58,939 nucleotides of DNA from an uncultured archaeon (GTDB taxonomy: Archaea > Aenigmatarchaeota > Aenigmatarchaeia > QMZP01 > JACQNV01): positions 1 through 58,939 of the forward strand of contig CAYYYJ010000002.1 in the NCBI GenBank assembly GCA_964476045.1, in the 5' to 3' direction. The notes beneath the pieces were generated by a model. It made no database searches. It was not told the origin of the DNA and saw only the letters and a program-made list of their open reading frames with translations. A program made the translations under genes and the position numbers. Of the stretch, positions 128-46,809 are shown in pieces. Numbering within the stretch: position 1 is the first letter of the stretch; every line of letters begins with the position of its first letter.

Positions 128-321
128 CGCCGAGGACAGGAATTGAACCTGCGCTCCCCGAAGGGAATCCGCTGACTAGGGACAAAGCTGATCTTCAGAT
201 CAACTTCAACCTTTCCGTTTCTCATACAAGACTAAACCTCGTCATTTCCGCCTACTTCCGAGTCAAGCCAATTTATTCACAGAAACTCAAGGCGGACGCA
301 TTACCGCTCTGCCACCTCGGC
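128..321 (-). tRNA. tRNA-Ser(UGA), class II, with ~112-nt intron (174..285) after position 37
   Basis: Sense GCCGAGG-TG-GCA..TGC-G-TCCGC-CTTGAG[intron]A-GCGGA-TTCCCTTCGGGGAGC-GCAGG-TTCAATT-CCTGT-CCTCGGC-G; acceptor, anticodon and T stems all pair. Confidence 0.8.
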
Positions 322-3972: not shown

Positions 3973-4342
3973 AACTTCTTTTTTGATCGATATCCTTAGA
4001 GGCAGAAAACAGGCTGTAGACCTGCTTAACGAGCTTGAAGAAAGGGAACCGCTCTTCATAACAACTCCGACTATCATGGAATTATGGGAAGGTGCGTTGA
4101 GATCCCAGCTCCCGGAGAAAGAGATGAAAAAGACAGGAGATATGTTAGTAGCGCTCCATATCCTGGACTTTGATGCCAAGGCAGCTAAAAAAGCTGCTGA
4201 AATAAATTACGAGCTTTTACATTCACCGATAGAGGCTGAAGATTCCATGATAGCTTCAATCGCTTTTGTGCATAATGAAGTCCTTGTCACAAAGGACGAG
4301 CATTTTGTTCGTATCAGCGGCCTGAAGATACTGAAATACTGA
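3959..4342 (+). CDS. vapC: PIN-domain toxin (VapC-like)
   Basis: 127 aa; N-terminal LETSFLIDILRG, later acidic residues; 14-nt overlap with the upstream antitoxin ORF. Confidence 0.75.
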   Translation: MAVLETSFLIDILRGRKQAVDLLNELEEREPLFITTPTIMELWEGALRSQLPEKEMKKTGDMLVALHILDFDAKAAKKAAEINYELLHSPIEAEDSMIASIAFVHNEVLVTKDEHFVRISGLKILKY

Positions 4343-15788: not shown

Positions 15789-16277
15789 CTAATCTTCTCT
15801 ACAAGCTTCGCACAAAATCCCATAAGTCGATTTGTTCAGGTTTTCAGAGTATTCCTCGCATTGATCGCAAAGGCCCGGGACAGAGTATTTATTCTGATTT
15901 TCTGTTATAGGAACGCTATCTGCTTTTATGTGTTCTGTCCCTTCAAACGGATAGAAGAAAAATATCTTGCTAAAGTTTCTGGCCATGTCAGCATTCTGCG
16001 GATTTATCCAGTGATAAACTTCATGCGTGTAGCAGTAAGGGCAAAGCGGGCTCTCGTTGAATTTTCCGCAGTCAAGGCACGGTTCGAAGTTGTCTGGGAT
16101 TGCTGTATTAAAATGGTTTTTCAGGTATTCGTGGAATTTTGTGAACTGTTGTGAGTATTTTGGCGGCAACCATTTTTGCACATTACTTCCGATGCAATCC
16201 ACGCATAAAAAATTCCATATTGGTTCTCTGCACAATTGGCAGATTATGGATTCCTGGCTATTTTCTAAAAACTTCAT
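15789..16277 (-). CDS. Cys-rich (multiple CxxC) zinc-finger protein
   Basis: 162 aa with at least 6 CxxC pairs. Confidence 0.5.
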   Translation of the reverse strand: MKFLENSQESIICQLCREPIWNFLCVDCIGSNVQKWLPPKYSQQFTKFHEYLKNHFNTAIPDNFEPCLDCGKFNESPLCPYCYTHEVYHWINPQNADMARNFSKIFFFYPFEGTEHIKADSVPITENQNKYSVPGLCDQCEEYSENLNKSTYGILCEACRED

Positions 16278-16307: not shown

Positions 16308-16371
16308 TTTCTAAAGAAGGCTGGAAATTGATTGAGAAAAAATATAAAAAATCAATTTCGTCCCTTTAAAA
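16308..16371 (+). repeat. palindromic element copy A
   Basis: CTTTCTAAAGAAGGCTGGAAATTGATT[loop]AATCAATTTCGTCCCTTTAAA. Confidence 0.8.
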
Positions 16372-16574: not shown

Positions 16575-18725
16575 ATGGTTACTATGGATATTGTCGGTTT
16601 AGAAAGCGCATCTGGATTTTCAGGTACAAAGCTCCAGGACTTTGTGCAAGCTGCATACTTTGTTTTAAAAAAATATAATAGAGAAAACCCTAAAGAGCAG
16701 GAATTGATCTGGCAAGATCTCTGCAAAAATCTTTTTGCTCTAAAAGAATTTTCTGACCTAAAATTTGAAGCACAGAAGCTGCTTTTCGATTTTGTTTATG
16801 GAAAGAGGCTGACTCAGGACGGACCGCCACCAGCATGGTTCCCCTCAAAAGAAAATTTAGAAAAATCAAATCTAGCTGTTGTAATGAAGGATCTGGATTT
16901 TAAAATGGCTGGAAACCGATCGAAGATGATTGAGATTGATCCTTCGCAATTGATCCGAGATCAATCTCGTCCCTTTAGGGAGTTCCACAAATGGTCTGTA
17001 GAAAACACCGACGACTTTTGGAGTCTAGTGACAAAAAGGCTTGGAATTGTATTTAAGAAGAGTTCTCAGAGGATATCAGACCTTTCTAACGGTGCAGAAA
17101 AGCCTGTTTGGTTCCCTGGTTCTGAGATAAATATTGTTGATAGCTGTTTTAATGCCGATAAAGGAAAAATTGCTGTCTATTTTTCTAGAGAAGGCTCAGG
17201 CAAAATTCAGAGCTGGACTTATGGAGATCTAGAAAATCTCGTCAATCAAGTTGCAAATAGTTTGAAAGAAAAAGGATACGAGAATGGCGATGTTATCGCG
17301 ATCGATATGCAAATGACTCCTGAGAGTGTTGCTGTTTACCTTGGAGTAATCAAAGCCGGTTGCGTTGCTTTATCAATAGCAGATTGCTTTGCTCCGCCTG
17401 AGATTGAGAAAAGGTTGAAGATAGGGAATGCGAAATTAATTTTTACAGTGGACTATTACATGAGGGACGGGAAGAAAATCGAAATTTATAATAAAGTTAA
17501 GGAGGCTAATCCTCCGCCTATTATACTAATTCCTTATGACGAAACTTCACAGGAAAAATTAGATGTGCTGGACATCTACTGGAAAGATTTTCTTGTAGTG
17601 AAAGATGAATTTGAATCTGTAGCTTGCAGACCGCAAGAGCCCACAAATATTTTATTTTCCTCTGGGACAACAGGCGAACCTAAAGCTATTCCATGGGACC
17701 ACACAACTCCAATAAAAGCTGCATCAGACTCGTTTTTCCATCAGGATATACACCCAGATGATATTTTAGCATGGCCAACAAATCTCGGATGGATGATGGG
17801 TCCGTGGCTTATCTACGCAACTTTAGTCAACAAGGCTTCAATGGCTTTGTACACAGGATCTTATTCTGGAAAAGAGTTTGGGGAATTCGTGCAAAATACT
17901 GGAGTTACTATGTTAGGTGTGATCCCAAGCTTGGTAAACATATGGAAAACAAAAAAATGCATGGAAGACCTTGATTGGAGCAAAATAAAAAGATTTAGTT
18001 CTACAGGAGAATGCTCGAGAAAAGAAGATATGTTATATCTCATGTCACTAGCTGGCTACAAACCGATAATAGAATATTGCGGCGGGACAGAGATCGGCGG
18101 GGTTTACATAACAGGAACAATGATACAGCCTTGCTCACCGTCCACTTTCACAACAGCTGCAATGGGTGTCGATTTTTTGATTCTAGACGAGAGCGGAAAA
18201 AGAACAAAAAACGGCGAGGTATTTATTATCCCGCCTTCTATTGGGTTATCGACCCTGATCTTGAATAGGGACAATTTCCAGACATATTATGAGGGATGCC
18301 CAAAAGAAAATGGCTATCATCTAAGACGGCATGGAGACCAGGTAGAGGAATTGGCAAACAACTATTTTGTTGTCCATGGAAGGACAGATGATACGATGAA
18401 CTTGTCTGGTGTAAAGGTGAGCTCTGCTGAGATTGAGAGGACACTGCACGGACATCCCGGAATATCAGAAACAGCTGCCATAGGGATAATGCCTGCAGAC
18501 ACCCGAATAACACAGCTTATTGTTTATGCAGTGCCGTCTAACGGAAGTGTTTTGAATAAGGAAAAAATAAAATCAGATTTCCAGCAAGCAATAAAAACAA
18601 AACTAAATCCAATTTATAAAATACATGATGTGGTTATAACAAATTCTCTCCCAAGGACAGCTTCGAACAAGGTGATGAGAAGGCTGCTGAGAGACGAGTA
18701 CCAGAAAAATATCCAGGCCAGATAA
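16575..18725 (+). CDS. AMP-forming acyl-CoA synthetase (acetyl/acetoacetyl-CoA synthetase-like) carrying a 24-codon element-derived insert
   Basis: 716 aa; FSSGTTGEPK AMP-binding motif, WSVENTDDFW N-domain, C-terminal TASNKVMRRLLR. Confidence 0.85.
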   Translation: MVTMDIVGLESASGFSGTKLQDFVQAAYFVLKKYNRENPKEQELIWQDLCKNLFALKEFSDLKFEAQKLLFDFVYGKRLTQDGPPPAWFPSKENLEKSNLAVVMKDLDFKMAGNRSKMIEIDPSQLIRDQSRPFREFHKWSVENTDDFWSLVTKRLGIVFKKSSQRISDLSNGAEKPVWFPGSEINIVDSCFNADKGKIAVYFSREGSGKIQSWTYGDLENLVNQVANSLKEKGYENGDVIAIDMQMTPESVAVYLGVIKAGCVALSIADCFAPPEIEKRLKIGNAKLIFTVDYYMRDGKKIEIYNKVKEANPPPIILIPYDETSQEKLDVLDIYWKDFLVVKDEFESVACRPQEPTNILFSSGTTGEPKAIPWDHTTPIKAASDSFFHQDIHPDDILAWPTNLGWMMGPWLIYATLVNKASMALYTGSYSGKEFGEFVQNTGVTMLGVIPSLVNIWKTKKCMEDLDWSKIKRFSSTGECSRKEDMLYLMSLAGYKPIIEYCGGTEIGGVYITGTMIQPCSPSTFTTAAMGVDFLILDESGKRTKNGEVFIIPPSIGLSTLILNRDNFQTYYEGCPKENGYHLRRHGDQVEELANNYFVVHGRTDDTMNLSGVKVSSAEIERTLHGHPGISETAAIGIMPADTRITQLIVYAVPSNGSVLNKEKIKSDFQQAIKTKLNPIYKIHDVVITNSLPRTASNKVMRRLLRDEYQKNIQAR
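16905..16976 (+). repeat. palindromic element copy inserted in frame in the acyl-CoA synthetase ORF
   Basis: ATGGCTGGAAACCGATCGAAGATGATTGAGATTGATC[17 nt]GATCAATCTCGTCCCTTT; near-identical to 41503..41570. Confidence 0.8.
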
Positions 18726-21485: not shown

Positions 21486-21808
21486 CTATATGGTAGGTTA
21501 GAGAAGCTTTATATGTTTTTTGTCCTGGCCATTTCAGCTTCTCAGAGAGAATTAGACCCATCTTTGGTAATCTACGAATCTGATAAAATAAGGTCAGAAC
21601 CATTTTCTGGCATCTCTAAAATTACAGGAGGCGCATATAAAAAATAACCGTCAATACAAAAAATATAAGATTTGTGTTCAGGGACAGGAAGGAGCCAACA
21701 AACCTGTCCCCAGACACAAGAAGAGGAATTTACTAGCCTACGAATATAAGTTATTAAGGAATTCTCACGCATTATATAAAGCTTTTCCCTAGTTTAGACC
21801 CAAATTCA

Positions 21809-21902
21809 GCCCTTTCTTTTCCCGATGGACTGAAACCGATTTCCGTTCGATCTATTCGAAATCGGTTTCGACCCTTTAAAGTGTTGAGATCCCAAAGAAA
21901 AA
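21809..21902 (+). repeat. palindromic element copy G with outer arms
   Basis: GCCCTTTCTTTTCCCGATGGACTGAAACCGATTTC[loop]GAAATCGGTTTCGACCCTTTAAAG...CCCAAAGAAAAAA. Confidence 0.75.
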
Positions 21903-21994
21903 ACGTTGAGATTAAGCCTTATAACCCAAGAAAGAAAAGGATTTACACCTATACCCAAAGAAAAACAATAGGCCGAATAAAACCAATAACCAAC

Positions 21995-22643: not shown

Positions 22644-22762
22644 CGCCATCACCCGGACTCGAACCGGGATATCCCGTCTTCTGAGAAATTGGAATGCTCA
22701 ATTTCAGTATGTGAAGGAAACAGGCTTTCCAGGCCTGCGCAGTACCATTGTGCCATGATGGC
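22644..22762 (-). tRNA. tRNA-Ser(GGA), class II, with ~37-nt intron in the variable arm
   Basis: Sense GCCATCA-TG-GCA..TGC-G-CAGGC-CTGGAAA-GCCTG-[52-nt variable region]-CCCGG-TTCGAGT-CCGGG-TGATGGC-G; the variable region is about 35 nt too long. Confidence 0.7.
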
Positions 22763-29442: not shown

Positions 29443-30948
29443 CTATAAATTTTCAAGGAGCTTCATCAGATTTCTTTTTGGAGCATGCTTTTCTTTGATA
29501 GCAGCTATTATTTTCTGCCATTTTCCCGGGGAAATGTCCTTTATTTTCTCCAAATATGCGACAGCTGTCCTGTAATTTTCGTTTCCCATCATACGTATAT
29601 AATCCTCTGCTAAACTGAGGTATATATTTAATGCTTTATCAGCTGACACCCTTTCGGCTATCTTATTTTTCATATCTTCTGACAAACTCTTCAGTGAATA
29701 CGCTCTGCTAACATCCCCCCTTTCCAAGTATAGGCTAGCCAAAATATTTGGGCTTTTTCCATTCTTCAAATAATCAATAAGCTTTTCCCTTTCAGCTTCC
29801 CAGATATTCAGCTTTTCTGAAATTCCCCTTATTTCTTCTATGTTCCATGGGGAATGTTTAAATAGTTTCCAAGCTGTCTGAAGAGCCAATTCCAAGTCCC
29901 CTTTCTTTTTATAAAGTTCTAGAAGCTCCATATCCAACTCCCCTGATTTGGCATATTTTATTGCCTCCTCTAGTTCGCCTTTCTCAGAGAGTTTATCAAC
30001 AAGGCACTCTGTCATGTTGAAGTTTTTGCAGGTTTCAATATACTCTTTTTCTTGGCCAAGCTTTTCTACAATAAAAAGTAAAAGGGAAGCCAAGGCTTCT
30101 TTTTCCCAGCCTTCGTAACTTTTTATTTTTTCAAAAACCAGCGACTTTGTTTTTAATAACATTTTATCATTTAAACCGGACATCGGCTTCTCTATGCTTT
30201 CTTCTATTCCATAATTAGCAGCCTCTGTATACAGATCCAGCAGGTTTTCAATATCTTGCTCTGTCATCTTCTTTGCAACTTTTGAAAGGGAATCCCCTAT
30301 ACTTATAACAACATCCCCGAATTCACCATTGTCGTCAATATTGTTTATATTTTCAACGCATTTTTCTAAAAAATAAATAAGGATTTGTATAGATTCTGCA
30401 TGGAAGCCTTTATCTATAATACCATCTATTTCGTTTCTTATATCTTCAATGTTTTCAACGAATTGCGGGATGGTATTATAATCAATAAAATCAAGATCAA
30501 ATGAACTGCTAATAATGCGCATGTATTCTTTTACATCGACTGATTTATTTGCCTTCAGGGCAGTTTCTGTTTTTAGTTTTCTTAGCAGTCTCTCATTTTC
30601 CATTGAGTTTTCCAAAATAATCTCTATCAGCTTTTCTTTTTTGAATGCCTTCAGATAGGATTTTATGTCTTCTGTCCTTATTTCTTCTGTTTTGGGAGAA
30701 TTTAAATAAGCTAAAAGAGCAGCAACTATATGCTTGCAGAAGCCTTCATATGGGCAGGAACACTTCTGGCCAGATTCAGATACTTCAACAGAATACAGGG
30801 CAGAACCTCTAACCTTGGCTTTCAGTTTGTTGTCTATAAGCATCAAATTTAAAACCTTGTTATCGAAAAAGTATTTTTCTCCCCTGTAATATATTCTTTC
30901 CCCCGAAATTTCCTTTATTTTCTTGGCTGTTAGATTTTGAATGTCCAT
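29443..30948 (-). CDS. SWIM zinc-finger protein with helical-repeat C-terminal region
   Basis: CSCPYEGFCKHIVAALLAY = CxC...CxH SWIM signature; 501 aa. Confidence 0.7.
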   Translation of the reverse strand: MDIQNLTAKKIKEISGERIYYRGEKYFFDNKVLNLMLIDNKLKAKVRGSALYSVEVSESGQKCSCPYEGFCKHIVAALLAYLNSPKTEEIRTEDIKSYLKAFKKEKLIEIILENSMENERLLRKLKTETALKANKSVDVKEYMRIISSSFDLDFIDYNTIPQFVENIEDIRNEIDGIIDKGFHAESIQILIYFLEKCVENINNIDDNGEFGDVVISIGDSLSKVAKKMTEQDIENLLDLYTEAANYGIEESIEKPMSGLNDKMLLKTKSLVFEKIKSYEGWEKEALASLLLFIVEKLGQEKEYIETCKNFNMTECLVDKLSEKGELEEAIKYAKSGELDMELLELYKKKGDLELALQTAWKLFKHSPWNIEEIRGISEKLNIWEAEREKLIDYLKNGKSPNILASLYLERGDVSRAYSLKSLSEDMKNKIAERVSADKALNIYLSLAEDYIRMMGNENYRTAVAYLEKIKDISPGKWQKIIAAIKEKHAPKRNLMKLLENL

Positions 30949-38513: not shown

Positions 38514-38642
38514 CTTTTTATTTAGAGATCAGTAATTAAAAAGGAGAAAAAAAGTATTCACACCATCTTCACGCCACCAAGATATATAAGCCAGGTTACC
38601 ATAAACTGTGTATCTTAAAAAATCAAATAAAATTTCAAGAAT

Positions 38643-38692
38643 GGATCAAACTGATTTCAGACCAATTGGTTAGGAAATCAATTTCAGCCATC
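38643..38692 (+). repeat. palindromic element copy F
   Basis: GGATCAAACTGATTTCAGACCAATTGGTTAGGAAATCAATTTCAGCCATC; about 90% identical to copy E. Confidence 0.8.
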
Positions 38693-38693
38693 T

Positions 38694-39770
38694 ATGGAGC
38701 CTATGAACGGATACCTCGACCTGAACTCAGCGTATACAAAAAACTTTGGCTGGAGATCCAATCCTTTTTCTTTCAAAATTGTCCCAGAGCTCTTTGTTGG
38801 CTACCAAAAAGAAGTCAGCACAATTTTTAACGGAGTAAACGACGGCTCTAGATTCTCTCTAATTTTAGGCCAATCAGGGACAGGAAAAACAACTTTTATG
38901 AAACATGTGCAGAGAAATCTCAGCGAGAAAAATAAAATCCTCTATCTCCCGAAAGCTCCAACAGACCCAAAAGACCTAGTTGAAATACTAACTAACAACC
39001 TAGGATTGAGTCCAGAAAATTCAGGCAAAGAAATAAACCTCTACAACATCGGAGACTTCCTAAACAAAGAAGTCAGGGATTTCAAAATAATCCTTTTCAT
39101 AGACGAGTGCCAAGAAGCGCCGAAGGAAACTTTCGAATGGCTCAGATCTCTGTCAGACCAGATAGACAATATCTCTATTGTATTATCCGGCCTCCCAGAA
39201 TTCGAGTCCATACTCAAAACAGAAATCCACAGTCTACTCAACCGCGTAAATATCAGGGTTGAAATGGGAAATCTCAGCAGATTAGAAACACTTGATCTAA
39301 TCAAGAAAAGAATAGAGTTTGTAGGCGGTATAGATACACAACCTTTCACACACGACGCGATAGAGATAATCTACGACAAAACAGCTGGCTACCCCAGAGA
39401 GATCCTAAGAGTCTGCGAAGAAGTCGCTCAAAAAGCTGCAATCAAAAATATTTCTATAGTAGACGCAGAGTTTGTCCAAGAGCAAGAAACCCTGAAATCA
39501 GTAGAAAAGCCTTCGATGCATGATCTCTCTGGAAGACAGAAAGCAATAATAGAATCCTTGATTTCCCACAAAACCCTTACACCGTCACAAATGGTAGCAA
39601 AGATCGACTGTAATGAATACAAAACAAAAGACAACGCAGTCCGCTCAGTCAACAACATCCTGAAAAGAATGACTGAAGAAGGCAAATTAATCCGAAAGAA
39701 AAGGGATAAAGCCTTTGTTTATGAGTTAGCGCCAAGAATGCAATCTGCTTTTAGTTTAGGAAAAGCTTAA
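38694..39770 (+). CDS. AAA+ ATPase with C-terminal winged-helix (ExeA- or Orc1/Cdc6-like; not resolved)
   Basis: GQSGTGKTT Walker A, LFIDECQE Walker B, C-terminal wHTH-like segment. Confidence 0.6.
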   Translation: MEPMNGYLDLNSAYTKNFGWRSNPFSFKIVPELFVGYQKEVSTIFNGVNDGSRFSLILGQSGTGKTTFMKHVQRNLSEKNKILYLPKAPTDPKDLVEILTNNLGLSPENSGKEINLYNIGDFLNKEVRDFKIILFIDECQEAPKETFEWLRSLSDQIDNISIVLSGLPEFESILKTEIHSLLNRVNIRVEMGNLSRLETLDLIKKRIEFVGGIDTQPFTHDAIEIIYDKTAGYPREILRVCEEVAQKAAIKNISIVDAEFVQEQETLKSVEKPSMHDLSGRQKAIIESLISHKTLTPSQMVAKIDCNEYKTKDNAVRSVNNILKRMTEEGKLIRKKRDKAFVYELAPRMQSAFSLGKA

Positions 39771-40134: not shown

Positions 40135-40234
40135 ACCCTTTCTTTTCAAAGAAGGATGGAAGTTGATTTCCTATCCAATTTATCTGAAATCAACTTCGTC
40201 CCTTTAGAAAGGCTACAGTACCCAAAGAAAAGGG
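40135..40234 (+). repeat. palindromic element copy B with outer arms, 6 nt from the PRC-barrel start codon
   Basis: ACCCTTTCTTTTCAAAGAAGGATGGAAGTTGATTT[loop]AAATCAACTTCGTCCCTTTAGAAAGGCTACAGTACCCAAAGAAAAGGG. Confidence 0.8.
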
Positions 40235-40377: not shown

Positions 40378-41127
40378 TTAGTCAGAAGTAGGCGTAACCT
40401 TTACCCCAATTTCTTCCAGTTTTTCCTTAAACTTCTCTAAAGCCCTGTTAATATCCTCTATGCTATGGGCTCCTGTACAAATTATTTTTCCAGAACTGAA
40501 CAAAAGGAATGCAACTCTAGGTTCTGTTATCCTGAAAACCAACCCAGGGAACTGCTCTGGCTCGTACTCAGCATTCTCTAGCATGAAAGCAATCTCTTCT
40601 AAATTTAGCTTTGCCAGGATCTTAGTTGAAGCAACAATATTCTCAACCTCTATTGGGAATTTTTTTGGCACATTGAACCCTACGCTGCGTATTGTTTCAG
40701 CCACTTTTTGCATCGCAATCTTGGCATTCTCTATACTCTTTGCGCCTGTACAAACAACCTTGCCCGAGCTGAAAATTAAAGCTGCTGCCCTAGGGTTTGT
40801 AGGCCTGTAAACAAGACCAGGGAACTGCTCAGGTTCATATTCAGTATTCTCTACCTCTTTAACAAGCTTTTCCAATTGAATATCAACTCCAAGTGTAGCA
40901 AAAGCAACTACGTTCTCAACTTTTATTTTAAAATCACTAGGTAAGTGTATAATCGGGCTACTCTCACTGCTGGGACTCTTCGTATTCTCCCCCTGATGAA
41001 CCGGTTCTTTAATTTTATGCTCTTTACCCTTTGTTGCTTTTAAATCTAGGGCCTTCTTTCCACTAATCTTTTTCATTTTGGGTTTAGTTTTTTTAGAAAT
41101 CGATTTCTTATCTTTAGCCATATCCAA
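40378..41127 (-). CDS. tbp: TATA-box binding protein with ~65-aa Lys-rich N-terminal extension
   Basis: Two TBP repeats (ENVVAFATL...EQFPGLVYR; ENIVASTKI...EQFPGLVFR). Confidence 0.9.
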   Translation of the reverse strand: MDMAKDKKSISKKTKPKMKKISGKKALDLKATKGKEHKIKEPVHQGENTKSPSSESSPIIHLPSDFKIKVENVVAFATLGVDIQLEKLVKEVENTEYEPEQFPGLVYRPTNPRAAALIFSSGKVVCTGAKSIENAKIAMQKVAETIRSVGFNVPKKFPIEVENIVASTKILAKLNLEEIAFMLENAEYEPEQFPGLVFRITEPRVAFLLFSSGKIICTGAHSIEDINRALEKFKEKLEEIGVKVTPTSD

Positions 41128-41224
41128 TCAGACATCGATAGTGGAATGTCGTCCACTCGCTGAAATATAAAACAAGAGCGTAAGCTTTATATTAGTATAC
41201 TATATATCGTGCTCCCTATATATA

Positions 41225-41480: not shown

Positions 41481-41618
41481 TCCTTTTCTTTCCAAAAGAA
41501 GAGTGGAAACCGATCGAAGATGGTTGAGATTGATCTTGGATCAGCTGCGAAGGATCAATCTCGTCCCTTTGTGATCGGTTTCGTCCCTTTAAGTATACCG
41601 TACCCAAAAAGAAAGGGT
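41481..41618 (+). repeat. palindromic element copy C: one element nested in the loop of another
   Basis: Outer GTGGAAACCGATC...GATCGGTTTCGTCCCTTTA encloses inner GAAGATGGTTGAGATTGATC[17]GATCAATCTCGTCCCTTT; outer arms TCCTTTTCTTTCC / CCCAAAAAGAAAGGG. Confidence 0.8.
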
Positions 41619-41717: not shown

Positions 41718-42536
41718 ATGATTGATGTTCACTGTCACCTGGAACAAAAGGAATTCGAGAACGGCCTAGACAAAGTAATACAATCTTGTAAATCTGTAGG
41801 TATAAAAGCCCTGGTAACATCTTGCTGCAACCCAAAGGATCTGGAGAAAACCCTCGAAATCCAGGAAGAGTATAAGAACTTTGTTTTCGCCTGTGCAGGC
41901 CTGCATCCAGAGTACATAAAAGAAATCTCTCAGAAAGAAGCTGACTCTTATCTAGACCTTCTAAAGAAGAACAAAAACAAACTAATAGCAATCGGGGAAA
42001 TAGGCCTCGACTATTTCTGGATAAAAGAGCCTTCCTGGCAAGCCAAACAGAGAGAACAGTTCGCAGAGTTAATCAGGTTTGCTAAAGAGCTAAAAAAGCC
42101 TTTAGTTGTTCATTCCAGGAACTCACATCCTGACACAGTAAACATCCTCGAAAAAGAAGATGCGAAACAAGTCCTTCTCCACATGTTCGGCGGAAAAGAC
42201 CTGATCAAAAGAATTGTCCAAAACAATTGGTTAATTTCCATAAACTACCTCATAACCAGAAGCAAAGACTACAAAAAAATAGCGAGGGACACACCTCTAG
42301 AGAATATTTGTCTCGAAACAGATGCTCCTTGGAACGGAATACAAAAACCTTCCGACCAACTTTCTAAATCAGATGTAATTTTCCGAGAAAACAAAGAAAC
42401 AAAAATCACAACTTTGAGGAATGACCCAACAACAATCCTTCCCACCGCGCAAAAAATAGCTGAGATCAAAAAGGTCTCTTTCGAACAAGTCTGGAAAAAC
42501 TGCGGGGAAAACGCGAAGAAGTTTTTCAACATCTAG
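41718..42536 (+). CDS. tatD: TatD-family metal-dependent hydrolase
   Basis: MIDVHCHL, GEIGLDY, VVHSR, ETDAPW. Confidence 0.85.
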   Translation: MIDVHCHLEQKEFENGLDKVIQSCKSVGIKALVTSCCNPKDLEKTLEIQEEYKNFVFACAGLHPEYIKEISQKEADSYLDLLKKNKNKLIAIGEIGLDYFWIKEPSWQAKQREQFAELIRFAKELKKPLVVHSRNSHPDTVNILEKEDAKQVLLHMFGGKDLIKRIVQNNWLISINYLITRSKDYKKIARDTPLENICLETDAPWNGIQKPSDQLSKSDVIFRENKETKITTLRNDPTTILPTAQKIAEIKKVSFEQVWKNCGENAKKFFNI

Positions 42537-43633: not shown

Positions 43634-43746
43634 GCGTTGTCTGATCTACTTACTGTAATGTATAAACATTAGCGGTAGGTTTAAAAAGTGTTTGTATACT
43701 GGAGTATATACTTCTGTTACAATCATCCATCTTAAAATCTACGAAA

Positions 43747-43797
43747 GACCGAAACTGATTTCAGACCAATTGGTTAACAAATCAGTTTCCGTCCATC
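43747..43797 (+). repeat. palindromic element copy E, 15 nt upstream of ftsZ
   Basis: GACCGAAACTGATTTCAGACCAATTGGTTAACAAATCAGTTTCCGTCCATC followed by TATGGAGG-N6-ATG. Confidence 0.8.
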
Positions 43798-43811
43798 TAT
43801 GGAGGTAAAAT

Positions 43812-46707: not shown

Positions 46708-46809
46708 GCCCTTTTGGGTACAGTAGCCGATTCGGCTGGAAACCGATTTTCTAAGCAATTGGTCTAAAATCGGTTTCGTCCCTCTAAAGCTCCCGGAAAA
46801 GGCTACTAT
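46708..46809 (+). repeat. palindromic element copy D; right arm overlaps the S15 start codon
   Basis: GCCCTTTTGGGTACAGTAGCCGATTCGGCTGGAAACCGATTTT[loop]AAAATCGGTTTCGTCCCTCTAAAGCTCCCGGAAAAGGCTACTATG. Confidence 0.8.

Follow-up and report, generated by a model that had tools for sequence, protein, structure and literature searches.

In the window, by which we mean the whole 58,939-nucleotide (nt) stretch analyzed here (contig CAYYYJ010000002.1 of assembly GCA_964476045.1, from an uncultured archaeon of the Aenigmatarchaeota), the spacer between the rpoN and TatD genes contains a palindromic element which carries a second, complete palindromic element in the place of its loop. [quoted passage not shown] The window comes from the chromosome of a DPANN archaeon and carries intron-bearing tRNA genes and genes for the TATA-binding protein (TBP), RNA polymerase subunit N, aIF2-beta, FtsZ and housekeeping functions, and the nearest relatives of its proteins are labelled Aenigmatarchaeota by their sources.

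Anatomy of the composite upstream of rpoN

The rpoN–TatD spacer is 243 nt long, the TatD gene starting at 41718 on the plus strand. A second complete element taking the place of the outer loop had been described in it from the sequence alone, and the region 41503-41590 indeed reads in this way, the inner unit corresponding to 41516-41570 (Table 1). The outer loop left no remnant in this nest, unless the GT that separates the right end of the inner unit from the outer right arm is one, this dinucleotide being the sole possible candidate. The composite had also been placed 7 nt from the rpoN start; this distance is correct for the pyrimidine/purine flank, which begins at 41481-41482, whereas the composite proper lies 28 nt from the ATG (41474). 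The name rpoN is appropriate for the archaeal RNA polymerase subunit N (Pfam RNA_pol_N) and should not be understood as sigma-54.

Comparison with copies of other assemblies (designated here by L numbers) supports the assignment of the inner and outer units to one repeat family, in which they represent distinct subfamilies, each having ends of its own. Simple copies in L002 and L030 have ends identical to the outer arms (12/12 and 18/18 nt), the TGGAAACCGATC of the outer left arm is identical in simple copies of L002, L003 and L030, and the inner left flank matches the family variant ATGGTTGA of L058. The inner unit was recognized by the covariance model of the family, R1 (41516-41573, 48.5 bits, E = 8.7e-10), a score that is partly circular because this unit is itself among the 23 copies used for training. 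The whole composite region folds as a single coaxial hairpin (z = -4.3 as RNA and -3.8 as DNA), and the identical composite sequence is present in a second assembly (Logan ERR4904392). With this model score, these arm identities, this fold and the second assembly, the composite is more than a product of chance.

The composite is antisense to rpoN and is located between the start codon and a promoter inferred from conserved TATA-like boxes. It lengthens the rpoN leader by approximately 170 nt of antisense, strongly folded sequence, with pyrimidine tracts that can pair with the ribosome-binding purine tract, and it may influence rpoN expression. The pyrimidine tract at 41482 is complementary to the Shine-Dalgarno-like AAAGAAAAGGA preceding rpoN, and the adjacent purine tract is the left flank of the family; the same pyrimidine/purine layout recurs at the 40149 copy and in L005, L008 and L030. 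On the other side, the flank AGTATACCGTACCCAAAAAGAAAGGG is fixed at the rpoN locus while the adjoining element changes in type and orientation between species, and a motif resembling it occurs on the right side of the 40149 copy (at 40218) and, in inverted form, on the left side of the 46729 copy (at 46709). Also recurrent is a second motif, GTACCCAAA(G/A)AAAGGG, often following GGCTACA, which was observed 15-20 nt from family copies (40218-40234, 41600-41617 and, inverted, 46709-46721 in the window; approximately 2525-2540 in L053) and which, at rpoN, keeps its place while the element beside it changes orientation from one species to another.

The repeat family and its nests in other genomes

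Members of the family have the form (A)AGAAGG-n-TGGAA, followed by a stem of 7-12 bp, a loop of 15-17 nt centred on CAATTG, the second arm and the right end TTCGTCCCTTT. They measure approximately 55-60 nt and are non-coding, with no open reading frame (ORF) specific to the element. The left flank is purine-rich and ends in TGGAA, the stem sequence is variable and always includes GAT/ATC, and a 3x3 internal loop (CTG/GTC) is conserved; a few copies have a loop of just 3-4 nt (L053 131-175, L014 20647-20688 and L011 18465-18506). Among 23 aligned copies from at least eight assemblies, the 12-bp main stem is 97% paired, 8 of its 12 pairs are changed on both sides and there is no pair with variation on a single side. 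Wobble (U-G) pairing accounts for six cells of this alignment, all in the two loop-proximal pairs, and G11-A12 and the central GAT/ATC are invariant. Loops were found in both orientations relative to the ends (flipped in L006 and L008); the inner loop of the composite (41536-41552) is the reverse complement of the loop of a sister copy (16942-16958; CTTCGCAATTGATCCGA), and its centre displays a symmetric double substitution, from CAATTG to CAGCTG. Together, the Watson-Crick-only covariation, the loop flips and the symmetric change of the dyad argue for a DNA palindrome rather than a strand-specific RNA.

Copies of the window were located by motif search, by inverted-repeat search and then with the covariance model, which recognizes nine of them in the 59 kb (E-values down to 3e-17), to which one stub is added. 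They do not all lie on the plus strand, two of them (43740-43799 and 38637-38694) being detected on the minus strand by the model. A replication-linked strand bias, considered on the basis of the first six copies, all on the plus strand, was rejected with these two, orientation following the neighbouring gene. Elsewhere, Aenigmatarchaeota-like assemblies with copies number at least seven. When one genome of each species was scanned with the pattern, copies were returned in three other metagenome-assembled genomes; a metagenome pattern scan returned 42 loci, of which 7 are true family members, and contigs reached through TatD and rpoN homologues provided more copies. The other 35 loci of the metagenome scan (GC 0.44-0.64) have no family hairpin, most of them being one recurrent bacterial sequence, and were discarded. 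This recurrent 42-nt match, TGGAAGCTGAT...ATCAGYCTCGTCCC, is unrelated to the family and probably belongs to a conserved bacterial gene; it is found in many contigs, several of them labelled human-gut metagenome (L017, L019-L024, L026-L028, L034, L035, L037, L039, L040, L043, L044, L046, L047, L049 and L054).

Approximately 33 copies could be placed relative to genes: in 14, the TGGAA side is at most 61 nt from the start of a gene which reads away from it; in 5, the CGTCCC side is at most 51 nt from such a start; and 3 are inside ORFs. Copies in frame inside ORFs occur on either strand, and several others are in tRNA genes. No family of Rfam 15 fits the element, the best being hairpin models of plant and animal miRNAs (scores of 18-23 bits, where the cut-offs are 80-100), and the Rfam scan of the window returned tRNAs only. 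The family pattern has no match in IMG/VR, and a viral origin was rejected accordingly. No description of this family or of Aenigmatarchaeota MITEs was found in the literature searched. Also discarded were a K-turn (L7Ae site) and C/D or H/ACA RNAs, the flanks having neither the G-A pairs nor the boxes required; a transcription terminator, several copies being located between divergent genes, where there is no 3' end; and a CRISPR or tandem array, the copies being dispersed. Neither a transposase nor a Y1/HUH domain was found in the 40 window proteins scanned, in agreement with a non-autonomous nature of the element. Just one window protein has any connection, even a distant one, to domains associated with transposases: it measures 501 amino acids (aa) (29443-30948, minus strand), and its sole Pfam match is an N-terminal SWIM zinc finger.

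A search for two close right ends in 246 kb of family-bearing DNA retrieved the window composite only; nests in L011 and L078 turned up later, for a total of three. The L011 nest, identical in L012 from another sample, has three levels followed by a tandem simple copy, and the orthologous place in L014 is occupied by a simple copy with the same left end GGTGGAAATAG. The L078 nest has two levels, with an outer unit of the same ACCGATC subfamily as that of the window and a different inner unit. Inner and outer units have the same orientation in all three nests, the 8-9 nt left flank of the inner unit directly following the outer left arm; a spacer of 2-4 nt precedes the outer right arm (GT in the window, CA/AA in L011, AACC in L078), and no recognisable remnant of the ordinary loop is present in any of them. 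Simple copies of the ACCGATC subfamily exist in the window (46729-46788) and in L002, L003, L030 and L058, and a stand-alone relative of the inner unit in L053 (131-175). Neither subfamily is obligately nested. Because the subfamily is thus not nested at every copy across genomes, the nest is a real combination of two units, as had been proposed, and not a single longer type of element. The layouts in L078 and L011 support an independent recurrence of apical-loop nesting. Head-to-head pairs of copies or half copies with one common stem sequence were also observed in L078 (3425-3535 and 5210-5352).

Table 1. Components of the rpoN composite, family copies of the window and nests of other genomes
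Feature	Positions	Strand	Basis
rpoN, RNA polymerase subunit N, 64 aa	41280-41474	-	Pfam RNA_pol_N recorded for homologues
Pyrimidine tract then purine tract, CCTTTTCTTTCC-AAAAGAAGA	41482-41502	+	
Outer element, left end and left stem arm, GTGGAAACCGATC	41503-41515	+	sequence reading
Complete inner element: GAAGATGG-TT (left flank), GAGATTGATC (stem), loop of 17 nt, GATCAATCTC (stem), GTCCCTTT (right end)	41516-41570	+	
Inner left flank and stem arm, GAAGATGG-TT-GAGATTGATC	41516-41535	+	
Inner loop TTGGATCAGCTGCGAAG, centre is the palindrome CAGCTG	41536-41552		
Inner second stem arm and right end, GATCAATCTC-GTCCCTTT	41553-41570	+	
GT spacer, inner right end to outer right arm	41571-41572	+	
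Outer element, right stem arm and right end, GATCGGTTTCGTCCCTTT	41573-41590 (with following A, 41591)	+	
Conserved flank AGTATACCGTACCCAAAAAGAAAGGG	41592-41617	+	alignment with L059-L066
Simple copy, AT-rich loop, 37 nt from the start of gene 15789-16277 (-)	16314-16370	+	covariance model
Sister copy: outer left arm and complete inner element, without outer right arm	16906-16976	+	in ORF 16575-18725
Simple copy inside unit TCAGCCCTTTCTTTT...GTGTTGAGATCCCAAAGAAAA, intergenic here	21822-21880	+	covariance model
Simple copy abutting the AAA-ATPase gene start	38637-38694	-	covariance model
Simple copy in ~105-115 nt insertion, 5' leader of 86-aa PRC-barrel gene	40149-40208	+	R1, 76.5 bits
Stub GTGGAA-TG-TCGTCCAC: left and right end, hairpin missing, TBP leader	41141-41156	+	
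Simple copy 13 nt upstream of ftsZ	43740-43799	-	R1, 42.6 bits
Simple copy, not nested, sibling of the outer element (GGCTGGAAACCGATTTT-loop-AAAATCGGTTTCGTCCCTCT); rpS15 lies 20 nt downstream	46729-46788	+	R1, 71.5 bits
Three-level nest then tandem simple copy: GGTGGAAATAGG - taatttctg - TTGGAAGCTGAC - aatatttg - TTGGAAATTGAC-caca-GTCAATTTCAGTCTTT - ca - CTCAGATTCGGCCTTT - aa - GGCCTATTTCGTCCCTTC	L011 13880-13995		
Two-level nest: ATTCAGCTGGAAACCGATC / GATTCAGTTGGACATCGATC-CTAACCAATTGTGCAA-GATCGATGTCATCCCTTT / AACC / ATCGGTTTCGTCCCTTT	L078 1335-1423		

Presence and absence of copies at orthologous sites

Orthologous sites of related genomes showed presence/absence variation, indicating that family copies have been gained and lost on short evolutionary time scales. 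One comparison concerns the sister copy, located within a 716-aa AMP-dependent (acyl-CoA) synthetase-like ORF, where it corresponds to 22 residues (KMAGNRSKMIEIDPSQLIRDQS) absent from all seven homologues compared (7/7). The syntenic orthologue of L002 (approximately 70% nucleotide identity) has an empty site, ...TTACAGGAAA / TTCCATCG... (junction ...ACAGGAAA / TTCCAT...). The window gene contains 67 extra nt and a 1-nt gap just upstream, which appears to restore the frame; the net gain of 66 nt is in frame and without stops, and the insert is therefore translated. The outer left arm is present in both window copies of the inner subfamily (16906-16976 and 41503-41570, identical at 31/32 and 18/18 positions), indicating that the nest, or its left two-thirds, was copied as a unit, so that the nesting event need not have occurred at rpoN. 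The nest is therefore older than the occupation of at least one of these two loci.

Leaders of other genes display the same variation. In L059, whose rpoN is 89% identical to that of the window, the 86-aa gene has an empty site between its conserved TATA box and ATG (...ATATAGTT-TAAAGGCAAA-ATATGG), and the TBP leader has a full copy at the place orthologous to the window stub. L059 also has the orthologue of the AAA-ATPase copy, with a different stem sequence which is still paired; at the locus matching 16314, L002 has a short-loop hairpin in an alignment too diverged to define an empty site. Other stubs were found in L009 (2597-2615, GCTGGAAG-TATG-TCGTCCC), L061 (approximately 3989-4021, GAAATTGAT-TTCGTCCC) and L067, and they look like footprints of hairpin deletion. 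Candidate target duplications, GGAAA/GGGAG in the synthetase gene and CCTTT/CCTTT in the 86-aa leader, are short, imperfect and different between the two sites. The TBP of the window (40378-41127, minus strand) has a lysine-rich N-terminal extension of approximately 65 residues ahead of its two TBP repeats.

The rpoN upstream spacer itself is variable. Six contigs of the 89% relative have a spacer of 203 nt in which the same flanks enclose an oppositely oriented simple copy of another subfamily (stem ATAGGTCT), and two contigs (rpoN 89%) have a spacer of 131 nt with a stub only, the rest of the spacer being identical. The spacer measures 140 nt and is element-free in a 77% relative, and measures 48 nt in a 72% relative and 72 nt in an 81% relative, the closest syntenic one (TatD 78%, ENA ERZ27297570, from gene coordinates only). 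An allele with only the outer element, sought at rpoN in these relatives, was not among them, the locus being occupied by another simple copy, oppositely oriented, by a stub or by no element, and the inner unit has no visible target-site duplication at its borders. The mobility that had been deduced from the nesting is thus supported in part, through the gains, losses and recurrent nests of the family and not through evidence of an insertion event at the rpoN locus itself. Two rpoN–TatD spacer alleles of one species (L059 5798-6000 and L061 3908-4038) differ by 72 nt; the longer one (L059) contains CAATTGGTT twice, outside the element and in its loop, and since the sequence following this repeat also differs between the alleles, they are not related by a simple deletion.

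Copies of the family also interrupt tRNA genes. In L006 (7174-7510), a 218-nt insert occupies the T-loop and its removal restores a perfect tRNA-Thr(UGU), as does the removal of a 59-nt D-loop and a 197-nt T-loop insert in L053 (2545-2880); these two orthologous genes differ in the other introns that they carry. In L041 (2366-2620), a 107-nt D-loop insert consists of an element and its purine/pyrimidine flanks, and its removal restores a tRNA-Ile(UAU). In L052 (11350-11700, reverse complement), a 164-nt T-loop insert is of the same type as those of the L006 and L053 T-loops, and its removal restores a tRNA called Arg(CCG) by ARAGORN. Archaeal introns of the bulge-helix-bulge type have two 3-nt bulges on either side of a 4-bp helix at the exon-intron borders; in the present family, the CTG/GTC internal loop is symmetric and not staggered, and TCAG/CTGA could form a central helix at the T-loop inserts. 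The unit TCAGCCCTTTCTTTT...GTGTTGAGATCCCAAAGAAAA, a T-loop tRNA intron in other genomes, surrounds the 21822-21880 copy of the window, which was rejected as a tRNA intron there, no tRNA exons being found around it. This unit lies in a region of 509 nt without ORF (21486-21994), rich in small palindromes, and is preceded by a T-loop-like CCCAAAT. The window has two tRNA genes with long introns, at 128-321 and 22644-22762 (both on the minus strand, gene lengths 194 and 119 nt), and a weak family-like hairpin is seen in the intron of the former (173-217, minus strand, GGTTGAAGTTGATC-tgaa-GATCAGCTTTGTCCC, 19 bits).

Non-canonical tRNA introns and their "transposition" have been described in Thermoproteales, the mechanism being unknown (Fujishima et al. 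2010, reviewed in PMC4090602). Much more tentatively than for the nest itself, the family could be a palindromic mobile element inserting at DNA hairpin tips, its insertions in D- and T-arms creating the non-canonical tRNA introns of these DPANN archaea; we view this extension as rather doubtful. It would offer a concrete DNA-level mechanism for the gain and "transposition" of archaeal tRNA introns, the same element lengthening mRNA leaders and adding peptides to proteins, and self-nesting would be the same reaction on its own loop.

Mechanism, alternative explanations and significance

According to the reading that we favour, new copies would enter preferentially at DNA hairpin tips or palindrome centres, the candidate targets being the loop of another copy, the D- and T-loops of tRNA genes and GGAAA/TTCC in the synthetase gene. 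All these sites are tips or palindrome centres, which suggests that hairpin tips are preferred entry points. The nest may have formed by the exchange of the loop of an ACCGATC-subfamily copy for a unit of the GAGATTGATC subfamily; later, the stretch extending from the left end of the outer unit to the right end of the inner one would have been copied into the synthetase gene, through alternative ends or GGAAA microhomology, and copies would decay by hairpin deletion into stubs of two ends. Several points weigh against this reading. Neither an outer-only nor an inner-only allele was found at rpoN among the relatives compared, no clear target-site duplication exists at the synthetase or 86-aa leader sites, and no partner enzyme was identified. 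The leader insertions of the 86-aa gene and TBP have no obvious hairpin target, so that the hairpin-tip rule is not general. The location of 19 of the approximately 33 copies within 61 nt of start codons could reflect function rather than tolerance, as could the purine tract - hairpin - pyrimidine tract layout kept in either orientation. Finally, all the data are metagenome assemblies, with approximately 0.3 Mb of family-bearing DNA read.

An explanation without any dedicated machinery is that the nest and the synthetase copy arose from replication template switching, or from gene conversion between dispersed palindromes with common ends; the loop flips, the homogenisation of arms and the stubs would then be products of the same hairpin-driven replication errors. 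The synthetase copy is indeed off-register, running from the interior of the outer left arm to the inner right end, with a left junction in a GGAAA common to donor and target, and inverted loops between sister copies, the symmetric change of the loop centre, Watson-Crick-only stem changes, the different elements held at rpoN by otherwise identical strains, and the lack of a transposase among the 40 window proteins and of a target duplication all agree with it. It accounts poorly, however, for the dispersal of copies over many unrelated sites, tRNA loops and leaders among them, and for end sequences conserved across genera, which suggest recognition by a protein. We regard it as an improbable account that nevertheless deserves consideration, and transposase insertion cannot be distinguished from recombination or template switching between copies with these data.

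The composite might instead be a functional two-tier RNA hairpin of the rpoN 5' leader, acting in cis on access to the ribosome-binding site or by binding a protein, in which case the family would be a regulatory motif and not selfish DNA. The proximity of 19 copies to a downstream start codon and the similar layout in either orientation fit this explanation, as do the flanking pyrimidine tracts, which complement the ribosome-binding purine tract and are paired with it in the folds, and the copy preceding the AAA-ATPase gene, which two species have retained although its stem sequence differs between them and still pairs. Conversely, the leaders of rpoN, TBP and the 86-aa gene are element-free in close relatives, the type and orientation of the element at rpoN differ between species with 89% identical rpoN, in-frame copies exist inside ORFs on either strand, stems are nearly devoid of G-U pairs, loops are flipped, and nests are rare (one candidate in the 246-kb motif scan, three found in all), all of which makes it unlikely. 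Least credible of all, and in our opinion very improbable, would be mobile bulge-helix-bulge introns excised by the tRNA splicing endonuclease and spread by reverse splicing, the rpoN leader copy being removed from the mRNA. The D- and T-loop inserts are family copies whose removal restores intact, presumably essential tRNAs at four loci, one insert type is shared by two different tRNAs, and, in Thermoproteales, introns have been described as transposing from one tRNA gene to another (PMC4090602). However, the 3x3 internal loop (CTG/GTC), although conserved, does not have the staggered form of a bulge-helix-bulge, and the leader insertions have no evident motif of this kind at their borders; moreover, the synthetase copy is in frame and stop-free and the precise removal of its 67 nt would break the frame, which indicates that this copy is translated and not spliced.

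Compared with known systems, the REP-like turnover that we favour has several partial counterparts. REP sequences and bacterial interspersed mosaic elements (BIMEs), including REPINs, are likewise short imperfect palindromes with conserved ends and variable paired stems, multi-copy, dispersed and mostly intergenic, and they form head-to-head pairs, here seen in L078. Insertion sequences, IS1397 for example, are known to target REP loops, so that insertion at the hairpin tip of a repeat has a precedent. By contrast, the present family is archaeal and AT-rich, has no 5' GTAG, ends in TGGAA and TTCGTCCC, resides mainly in 5' leaders and also in ORFs and tRNA inserts, and nests within itself; REPINs are mobilised by RAYT transposases, whereas no RAYT/Y1 was seen among the 40 window proteins checked. 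With MITEs, which have been counted in DPANN genomes (PMC10969869, PMC11602168) and reach a high density in some of them (PMC11602168), it shares a non-autonomous, multi-copy and mostly intergenic nature, presence/absence variation and occasional in-frame ORF fusions; it differs by a length of approximately 55 nt, at the low end of MITE sizes, by being one palindrome over the whole element rather than terminal repeats around a core, and by having neither a consistent target-site duplication nor a parent insertion sequence in the window scan.

Rickettsia palindromic elements are palindromic repeats inserted in frame in protein genes and translated (PMC10969869). The insert of the synthetase-like protein, absent from homologues, is comparable to them, which is not the case of the rpoN composite, and so probably are approximately 24 residues in an LplA-like protein of L009, where the alignment to solved structures is too weak to prove an insertion. 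The Rickettsia elements are, however, longer (approximately 100-150 bp), restricted to Rickettsia and without sequence relationship to this family, of which just 2-3 of the approximately 33 copies are in ORFs. Archaeal non-canonical tRNA introns are similar in their D- and T-loop location, in the occurrence of similar inserts in different tRNAs and in the intron content varying between orthologous tRNA-Thr genes, while the present repeat is also found outside tRNA genes, in leaders and ORFs, and the window composite is in no tRNA. Mitochondrial repetitive hairpin-forming elements and GC clusters are short hairpins of compact genomes (PMC2800124), mobile-looking, with conserved stems, and located in spacers and occasionally in genes as here; they are organellar and unrelated in sequence, and in those of sponges it is the loops that vary, in contrast to the conserved CAATTG loop centre and the variable stems of the present family. 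Judged by these sequence features, the family seems to combine traits of several known kinds and yet to fail the defining features of each.

Small palindromic repeats are well known in bacteria and have barely been described in DPANN archaea, whose genomes are small and compact. The turnover of this family beside core genes (rpoN, TBP, ftsZ and rpS15) implies that the 5' leaders of essential genes are repeatedly remodelled. The nest is useful as a marker of hairpin tips as entry points, and a greater interest than in the nest itself lies in the possible link of the family with the gain of tRNA introns, a question which becomes testable with a repeat present both inside and outside tRNA genes, at empty and filled sites.

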